Of a DNA stretch of 64,000 bases, positions 37,256 through 37,366 are shown one piece after another. The DNA is taken from the sequence record PV682554.1; one strand, given 5' to 3'. Under the pieces are notes generated by a model. That model saw nothing but the letters and a program-made list of their open reading frames with translations, did not search any database and had not been told where the DNA came from. How positions within the stretch are numbered: position 1 is the stretch's first letter; each line of letters opens with the position of its first letter. The DNA comes from Escherichia phage 92CQ. Made by a program: the position numbers and the translations under genes.

Positions 37256-37366
37256 TGATAATCATTCTCATTTGTAAATGAGAATCATTATCATTTAATT
37301 ATGTAAGTGATAATCATTCTCAGTAAGAGAATGAGAATCGTTAGCAAATGAGAATTTTTCTCATTT
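37256..37366. promoter_or_regulatory. cluster of Fur-box-like palindromes
   Basis: GATAATCATTCTCATT-tgta-AATGAGAATCATTATC (37257-37292), TGATAATCATTCTCAG...GAGAATGAGAATCG, AATGAGAA-ttttt-CTCATT; resemble GATAATGATAATCATTATC. Confidence 0.5.

Follow-up and report, generated by a model that had tools for sequence, protein, structure and literature searches.

Two clusters of palindromes in Escherichia phage 92CQ (sequence record PV682554.1), one at each edge of a block of early genes, resemble Fur boxes as closely as genuine Escherichia coli operators do, a likeness strongly supported by the sequence comparisons described below. The DNA analyzed was a stretch of 64,000 nucleotides (nt) of this genome, called the window throughout. 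Our tentative reading is that the palindromes are authentic operators of the host iron regulator Fur, selected in a conserved control region at the early-block edge, and that they act as an iron-gated barrier; as a whole, we hold it with slightly less than even confidence. Its parts differ in strength. Binding of Fur to the phage sites in vitro is very likely, selection of that binding for a function is probable, and a barrier to transcription leaving the early block is a possible form of the function, put forward with reserve. Phages carrying such arrays probably read or exploit the iron status of their host.

Matches to the Fur box in two noncoding gaps

The original prediction had described a 36-bp palindrome with Fur-box-like arms, two related sites next to it, and a second cluster at 47773-48936. 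All were recovered. The palindrome (37257-37292) proved exact in coordinates and sequence: it consists of the arm GATAATCATTCTCATT (37257-37272), the spacer tgta, and the arm AATGAGAATCATTATC (37277-37292), with 15/16 arm positions complementary. A repeat search on the same segment returned 19-nt arms with 95% identity. Beside it, GATAATCATTCTC occurs again at 37309-37321, followed by GAGAATGAGAATCGTTAGC at 37327-37345 and by AAATGAGAA-ttt-TTCTCATTT at 37346-37366. In the second cluster, matches to a Fur matrix extend from 47770 to 48938.

This matrix was built from the best consensus match in each of 15 promoter regions or sites of Fur-regulated MG1655 genes (fepA-fes, fepD-entS, entC [2 sites], fhuA, fiu, fur, tonB, cirA, exbB, ryhB, fecI, fhuF [2 sites], and sufA) and was symmetrized. 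Genuine MG1655 sites match 12 to 17 of the 19 consensus positions and score 9.6-22.1 bits when left out one at a time. The consensus, GATAATGATAATCATTATC, is a 19-bp inverted repeat, and ten phage sites match it at 14-17/19 positions. The six best matches in the window start at 48719, 47828, 37274, 48914, 37303, and 37251 (24.2 down to 18.4 bits; Table 1). All six fall within the two predicted clusters, in two noncoding gaps covering about 4% of the window. At a threshold of at least 18 bits, these 6 matches compare with a mean of 0.16 and a maximum of 2 in 300 dinucleotide-preserving shuffles, an excess of about 40-fold.

The same motif was obtained without a Fur prior. Expectation maximization on upstream noncoding DNA of 10 relatives and on the cluster 2 gap yielded the de novo motif ATGATAATCATTCTCATTT, which correlated with the E. 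coli Fur matrix at r = 0.85, the maximum of 2000 column shuffles being 0.57. The Fur-box likeness proposed in the original prediction therefore stands, because the matrix scores (18.4-24.2 bits versus 9.6-22.1 bits for genuine sites), the excess over shuffles, and the de novo motif all agree with genuine Fur sites.

Several boxes overlap with an offset of 6 bp (37251/37257, 37274/37280, and the triplet 48908/48914/48920), and the same offset is seen in relatives. Such spacing is typical of two Fur dimers bound on opposite faces of the DNA. The phage sites thus carry three marks of a Fur box: a consensus match, a matrix score within the genuine range and above chance, and overlapping sites 6 bp apart. 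They lack a fourth, overlap with the -35/-10 elements of a strong promoter. Site 4 of cluster 1, GAGAATGAGAATCGTTAGC, reaches 20.1 bits in relatives in which an A replaces the G of CGTT.

The genome of Escherichia phage KKE7M (148.8 kb), to which the whole window is about 98% identical, contains one further match of at least 18 bits outside both clusters. This match, GAAAATGAATTTTATTATC (18.8 bits, at 81962, outside the window; L016 31962-31980), overlaps the start codon of nrdC (glutaredoxin) beside the ribonucleotide reductase genes and may be due to chance.

Conservation in relatives and recurrence in other phage families

A search in distant mode showed that 37347-37636 is conserved far outside the genus. 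Over 37469-37595, identity is about 84% in Klebsiella, Cronobacter, Pectobacterium (phiTE), Salmonella, Erwinia, and Enterobacter phages, which is unusually high for noncoding DNA at such phage distance. About 16 relatives were gathered by matching a 15-mer of the conserved block exactly and by drawing on GenBank phage records; a gp230-like protein, used as a query for related loci, returned only 2 close relatives. A Fur box was present at a fixed offset from the conserved anchor in 13 of the 14 relatives with usable flank (-182 to -194; -238/-232 in L066). These 13 span Phapecoctavirus, Certrevirus CR9, phiTE, and Klebsiella- and Salmonella-type contigs, and the repeats that surround the box are wholly different among them. 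The anchored box has the consensus TTGAATGATAATCATTCTCATTTGC and comprises two overlapping matches of 14-21 bits.

In most Vequintavirinae relatives, cluster 1 has kept no more than one or two overlapping boxes, whose position is exactly conserved. This position, the best conserved for a Fur box in Vequintavirinae and related phages, is occupied in the window by the proximal palindrome AAATGAGAA-ttt-TTCTCATTT. In phage tuntematon, as in the window, the proximal box has decayed to an 11.5-bit palindrome, and two to four strong boxes lie directly alongside. Between genera, 39% of the array columns are variable, as in neutral-looking DNA, compared with 3.6% in the neighboring block and 0% in its promoter. 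That the array keeps two to four strong boxes despite this variability is, as judged from the alignment, binding-site turnover.

Tuntematon and CR9 also have a second group of boxes in noncoding DNA 10-13 kb downstream, and its first box lies 200-300 bp past the early-operon terminator. The two-cluster layout therefore predates the genus. In CR9, a Cronobacter phage, we also observed a second copy of the last 30 nt (GGAGACAAACACCGGACCTGCCCGCTATTC) of the GC-rich hairpin that abuts cluster 1, followed by an 18.2-bit Fur box (L029 23775-23865). This copy of hairpin end plus Fur box is on the opposite strand and on the far side of the early genes, so that the module is mirrored at both borders.

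Similar arrays are found in unrelated phages. The 53-bp palindrome, used as a query, matched 598 phage records when E values of up to 1, a permissive limit, were admitted. Most of these records are Escherichia, Salmonella, and Klebsiella phages, and the matches often lie at several places per genome and in unannotated DNA. Against 5,426 E. coli genomes, it gave only short, uninformative matches with E values of at least 1. One of these matches was in a lambdoid prophage, where a Fur-box-like 25-mer of E. coli O157:H7 (L117 1501-1525) lies in noncoding DNA that separates the lysis genes from the gene for the small terminase subunit; it is present in many O157:H7 genomes.

T5-like phages (Gostya9, Salmonella H9, and T5) carry boxes of up to 20.8 bits in the untranslated part of the terminal repeat. 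The T5 array (NC_005859 9549-9720; L116 5550-5720) lies within the annotated injection stop signal, adjoins paired DnaA boxes, and is about 30 bp from the major nick. It contains palindromes such as TTAAATGAGAATCATTATCATTTGC, which score 18-19.6 bits, and several half-sites (TTTAAATGAGAATCATT). The shear point of first-step transfer has been estimated at about 9618, close to the boxes (AY587007 coordinates, which may differ slightly from those of NC_005859). The most detailed comparison of the T5 region lists palindromes and repeats and nowhere mentions Fur (bioRxiv 10.1101/866236). An identical 25-mer, GCAAATGATAATGATTCGCATTTAA, consisting of two overlapping Fur boxes, is shared by tuntematon (L028 13133-13157) and two T5-like phages (L018 2698-2722 and L019 2630-2654), which suggests horizontal transfer of a module or very tight constraint. 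In the Klebsiella jumbo phage phiKp_21 (Alcyoneusvirus; L118 1500-2050), five or more boxes scoring 17-21 bits lie in a 2-kb noncoding gap, which is also rich in AGTACTG repeats.

Tequintavirus, Alcyoneusvirus, and Vequintavirinae share the motif arrays and the host order, not the gene set; the ligand is therefore more plausibly a host factor than a phage regulator. A phage regulator with an AT-rich palindromic target, which the original prediction had offered as its alternative, is disfavored by this recurrence in unrelated phage families of one host order.

Promoters around the clusters and a candidate barrier to transcription

Both clusters were predicted to bracket the early genes, and the block in which host-type early promoters are densest does lie between them (Table 1). 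Promoter density is lower past cluster 2. The proposal that the sites couple early expression to iron fared less well. None of the early promoters is overlapped by a Fur box, and the best match within the block scores 14.4 bits; the first early promoter follows cluster 1 after about 640 bp, and cluster 2 is downstream of the early-operon terminator. Direct Fur control of the early genes is thus not supported, since the sites lie off all 23 early promoters.

On the leftward side, the array lies about 55-170 nt downstream of the predicted start of transcription. The strong promoters P1 and P2 are 55-340 nt away, and the early promoters are more than 600 nt away. P2, identified in an alignment read by eye, appears in relatives as TTGCAA or TTGATC, a free spacer of 16-17 nt, and TATATT, TATTAT, or AATAAT. 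Its predicted start is at about 37420, at the foot of the GC-rich hairpin. GC/GU alternations in this hairpin favor the minus strand, and its distance to the array is 7-9 nt. Leftward transcription of the conserved block 37375-37591 is supported by the G-U pairs, which indicate the strand, and by the conserved promoters. The segment 37347-37636, which starts at P1, may be a sequence-constrained RNA or DNA element. Rfam 15 gave only sub-threshold chance matches on the conserved block beside the array.

Upstream of P2 is a perfect CpxR-type box whose pentamers are invariant and whose spacer varies in all relatives checked. It lies about 100 nt downstream of P1 and, in the window, 15 nt upstream of the P2 -35 element (about 5 nt in relatives). 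It matches the MG1655 cpxP box GTAAAACAACGTAAAG (GTAAA-ACAAC-GTAAAG). Its weight rests on conservation, because about 0.4 chance matches are expected per window by our own estimate. The extended form TTTGTAAAGAnnnGTAAAGA was also seen in the T5 terminal repeat (NC_005859, about 5080 and 7519) and twice beside the phiKp_21 Fur boxes (L118 1752 and 2149).

Directly beyond the array are three direct repeats, which occur nowhere else in the window. At the same place, Vequintavirinae have three GATC-rich repeats of the same period and unrelated sequence (TTCTCGATCG ... CGTATTT ... GAAAAAATTTTT), which follow TGATATTTG triplets. The repeats look like iterons or binding sites of a lineage-specific protein.

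On the rightward side, cluster 2 occupies a noncoding, repeat-rich gap of 1.5 kb, in which promoter-like sites are not in excess (13 versus 12.2 in shuffles). Between 47860 and 48700, this gap contains further conserved structures: a hairpin, TTAGCAGCCTATG-CCGGACA-CATAGGCGGCTAA, with compensatory changes in tuntematon, the palindrome GCTTGCAACAATTGCAAGC, the direct repeats GTGAACAATGACA (twice) and ATCATTTCATAC (twice), and many CTATCT/AACCT motifs. A conserved 28-mer, GAATAGATCGCGGTATCGAGCTAATCAA, is located at about 47622-47649.

Table 1. Coordinates of the Fur boxes and of the features around them in the window
Feature	Position	Strand	Description
Direct repeats	37013..37233	no strand	Three repeats of ~70 bp (67-75 bp), ATTTAAAGTTT ... 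AAAATGAAAAGTTCAA
Cluster 1, sites 1 and 2	37251..37298	no strand	Two Fur boxes in the 36-bp palindrome, each accompanied by a partner 6 bp away; 37251, 18.4 bits; 37257, 16.4; 37274, 20.9; 37280, 15.8
Cluster 1, sites 3 and 4	37303..37345	no strand	GTAAGTGATAATCATTCTC, 18.4 bits (37303); GAGAATGAGAATCGTTAGC, 16.8 bits (37327)
Proximal palindrome	37346..37366	no strand	AAATGAGAA-ttt-TTCTCATTT, degenerate Fur box
GC-rich hairpin	37378..37421	-	Abuts the Fur array; predicted to form the 5' stem-loop of the RNA from P2 or the 3' stem of a longer RNA from P1
P2	37428..37455	-	TTGCTT-N16-TATTCT, sigma-70-type
CpxR-type box	37471..37485	-	GTAAA-GAAAT-GTAAA, perfect GTAAA-N5-GTAAA
P1	37598..37626	-	TTGACA-N17-TATACT, 11/12; both hexamers kept in all relatives inspected, spacer varies
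Early block	38006..47095	+	23 promoters with at least 10/12 matches to the sigma-70 consensus, nearly all with perfect TTGACA, about 1 per small gene
Intrinsic terminator	47541..47559	+	Strong; closes the early block; the order terminator, 200-300 bp, Fur box is also found in tuntematon and CR9
Cluster 2, first pair	47770..47846	no strand	47770, 16.8 bits; 47828, 21.5 bits
Cluster 2, top site	48713..48737	no strand	GCAAATGATAATCATTATC; strongest of the window; 48719, 24.2 bits, 17/19 consensus
Cluster 2, triplet	48908..48938	no strand	Boxes 48908/48914/48920, 6 bp apart; 14.8/19.7/14.5 bits

From this arrangement, the following model can be proposed. In an iron-replete cell, Fe2+-Fur dimers would bind the overlapping boxes cooperatively and coat 37251-37366 as well as the cluster 2 sites. 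At cluster 1, the Fur array would block leftward transcription from P1 and P2; at cluster 2, the sites would block rightward early transcription that runs past the terminator. When iron is scarce, apo-Fur would leave, and the block would open. Leftward transcription could then enter the three 70-bp repeats and continue antisense into upstream genes, and rightward transcription could enter the repeat-rich gap. P2 would additionally answer envelope stress via CpxR. An iron-gated block (a downstream operator, or roadblock) appears to be the most likely effect because the boxes sit downstream of outward transcription on both sides and not on promoters. The hexamers of P1 and P2 and the CpxR-type pentamers, all conserved with variable spacers, also count for this model.

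Several points weigh against it. Classical repression by Fur involves overlap with -35/-10 elements, and no strong promoter has these elements covered by a box; only 9/12 promoter matches overlap. To our knowledge, it is not well established that Fur can act as a roadblock to elongation. The promoter-proximal box is degenerate in the window (match at 37344-37362, weak at 11.5 bits). The geometry is ill-suited to hairpin-assisted release, since a box begins 7-9 nt past the hairpin. Nor does 37375-37591 qualify as a structured noncoding RNA, a candidate that was rejected: only 2 of 36 consensus pairs showed two-sided changes, and the folding energy of the single sequence did not surpass that of shuffles (z = +0.79). 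Finally, the matrix was trained on the best consensus matches in promoters taken to be Fur-regulated, and not on curated footprints.

The boxes could instead act in trans as a Fur sponge. About 10 strong boxes per genome, in hundreds of replicated copies, would soak up the few thousand Fur molecules of the cell, de-repress the iron-uptake regulon, and make iron available to the iron-dependent ribonucleotide reductases of the phage. High-affinity sites that are numerous and unlinked to promoters would suit this role, the phage has class I and class III ribonucleotide reductases, and de-repression of the regulon by multicopy Fur boxes is the principle of the Fur titration assay. However, the exactly conserved position of one or two boxes in most Vequintavirinae argues for a role in cis. 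T5 is reported to destroy host DNA within minutes and would gain nothing from de-repression, yet it keeps its array, and no precedent for a sponge was found in the open-access and bioRxiv literature. We regard titration as unlikely and favor a cis barrier over it. Classical operators of overlooked promoters, at which Fur would repress small transcripts when iron is plentiful, as at ryhB, seem quite unlikely. Each arm of the palindrome does hold a weak divergent TTCTCA-N18-TATCAT (37265-37294 on the plus strand and 37284-37255 on the minus strand; 9/12 each), 11 relatives have TTGAAT fused to their Fur box (rightward TTGAAT-N18-nnGAAT, antisense to the hairpin), and the half-site ATTCTC is common to the phage boxes and the ryhB, fhuA, and fecI operators. 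However, the window and tuntematon have lost the rightward -35 element (GCAAAT and TTAAAT), the putative -10 element is CTGAAT in about half of the relatives and thus lacks the key A at -11, and cluster 2 shows no surplus of promoter-like sites over shuffles. A general TTGAAT-N18-nnGAAT promoter was rejected, because the window lacks its -35 element and half of the relatives lack the A at -11.

An architectural role of host-factor sites, in a replication origin (a transcript, an AT-rich array, and iteron-like repeats) or in a T5-like checkpoint of DNA entry, would account for the three phased repeats of about 70 bp next to the array, for the GATC clusters and A/T tracts in relatives, and for the T5 boxes within the injection stop signal, beside DnaA boxes and close to the estimated shear point. 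We nevertheless consider it improbable. Neither TTATNCACA nor a relaxed DnaA box occurs in 36900-38000 or 47700-49240, IHF-consensus matches are absent beside cluster 1 (the only two are in the cluster 2 gap), and cumulative GC/AT skew tracks gene orientation and marks neither cluster; moreover, we know of no role of Fur in replication or DNA entry. It is very improbable that the ligand is a protein other than Fur, either a dimeric phage regulator or another host protein, with a coincidental likeness to Fur. An AT-rich palindromic target in an AT-rich genome (37.7% GC) would be in keeping with such a coincidence, but the scores equal those of the best natural Fur sites and exceed dinucleotide-preserving shuffles about 40-fold, and the same motif occurs in phage families with few shared genes and the same host order. 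In addition, a visual comparison showed no fit to the ARG, Zur, TyrR, NikR, and Fnr consensus sequences, and the adjacent open reading frames (ORFs) contain no Pfam DNA-binding family.

A broader version of the barrier model, which we rate as a long shot, would join Fur arrays, CpxR-type boxes, and, in T5, DnaA boxes into a shared "host-state sensing" module at the edge of the first-expressed DNA in phi92/rV5-like, T5-like, and Klebsiella jumbo phages. In T5, Fe-Fur on the entering DNA would be a working part of the injection stop, and in phi92-like phages the border would be gated by iron and envelope stress.

Genomic setting and comparison with known systems

By sequence match, the window belongs to a Justusliebigvirus genome (phi92-like, Stephanstirmvirinae), and its GC content is 37.7%. 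The cluster 1 region is 100% identical to KKE7M over 1.4 kb and about 97% identical to phi92. The order of segments differs from that of KKE7M: window positions 130-22752 correspond to record positions 24722-2068, and 22753-32188 correspond to 134877-125443. This could be due to another assembly start point or arrangement or to a true rearrangement. Public records of Justusliebigvirus begin at arbitrary positions. Genes on the plus strand run from about 32.6 kb to 62 kb of the window. Cluster 1 sits in a 1-kb noncoding gap (36985-38000), which in public records has no annotation except a small minus-strand ORF, to which phage alia adds two "repeat_region" features. Neighboring ORFs encode a NADAR domain, a CapR/T5orf172 endonuclease, a Phage_30_8 family protein, and proteins of no known function. 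A Pfam scan of the adjacent ORFs revealed no DNA-binding family, no recognizable DNA-binding regulator, and no iron-related gene, and a tRNA scan found no tRNA. Both classes of ribonucleotide reductase mentioned above are encoded by the phage according to its annotation.

In open-access papers and bioRxiv, we found no description of conserved multi-site Fur arrays in noncoding control regions of strictly virulent phages. If Fur binds, infection by the large coliphages of therapy and model collections would include a step that depends on iron, which is limiting in the gut, serum, and urine. The palindromes of the T5 injection stop would gain a candidate ligand, the stop mechanism having been unexplained for about 50 years, and phage DNA would titrate Fur naturally as it replicates. 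The presence of a CpxR-type box as well points to the integration of several host signals in these regions. A fur single-nucleotide polymorphism in phage-resistant avian pathogenic E. coli (PMC8711792) was dismissed as a lead, as it is a single unexplained mutant and no phi92-like phage is identifiable.

Among known systems, E. coli Fur operators (fhuF, ryhB, fhuA, fecI, entC, and fepA-fes) share with the phage boxes the 19-bp 9-1-9 inverted repeat, the preferred variants GCAAAT as the first and ATTCTC as the last hexamer, and overlapping boxes 6 bp apart, and the matrix scores of the phage boxes equal or exceed theirs. Unlike these chromosomal operators, the phage boxes lie off recognizable -35/-10 elements and downstream of promoters or a terminator, form arrays of 4-6, and belong to a virulent phage. 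The Fur box itself is a textbook element, and there are known cases of prophage cargo with a single box, such as the temperate-phage cargo gene stx1. The sitABCD operon on lambdoid coliphages also carries a Fur box (PMC6969025). In these cases, as in the arrays described here, phage DNA is placed under the host iron regulator; prophage cargo, however, has a single operator at the promoter of one accessory operon, whereas the arrays are in noncoding control regions of virulent phages, without a nearby iron gene.

The T5 injection stop signal (repeat region 3, with the DRC and DRE repeats and palE-palJ) resembles the clusters in its array of AATGAGAATCATT-type palindromes, near-identical to those of the window, in the long untranslated, repeat-rich region beside early genes, and in a GC-rich hairpin within about 10 nt of the array. 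It differs in its place within a long terminal repeat that enters the cell first, and in its neighbors, a nick site and paired DnaA boxes; DnaA boxes are absent from 36900-38000 and 47700-49240 of the window. Cyanophage genomes have Pho boxes and NtcA sites at promoters of auxiliary metabolic genes. Cyanophages, too, are virulent phages with sites for host nutrient regulators, through which phage functions track the nutrient state of the host; they differ in the regulator, the nutrient, and the placement at promoters. At ftnA, an upstream array of Fur boxes counteracts silencing by H-NS. This array is like the phage clusters in that several tandem boxes outside the core promoter act by occupancy and not by occluding a promoter, as the phage boxes would, and is unlike them in being upstream of the promoter and linked to H-NS.

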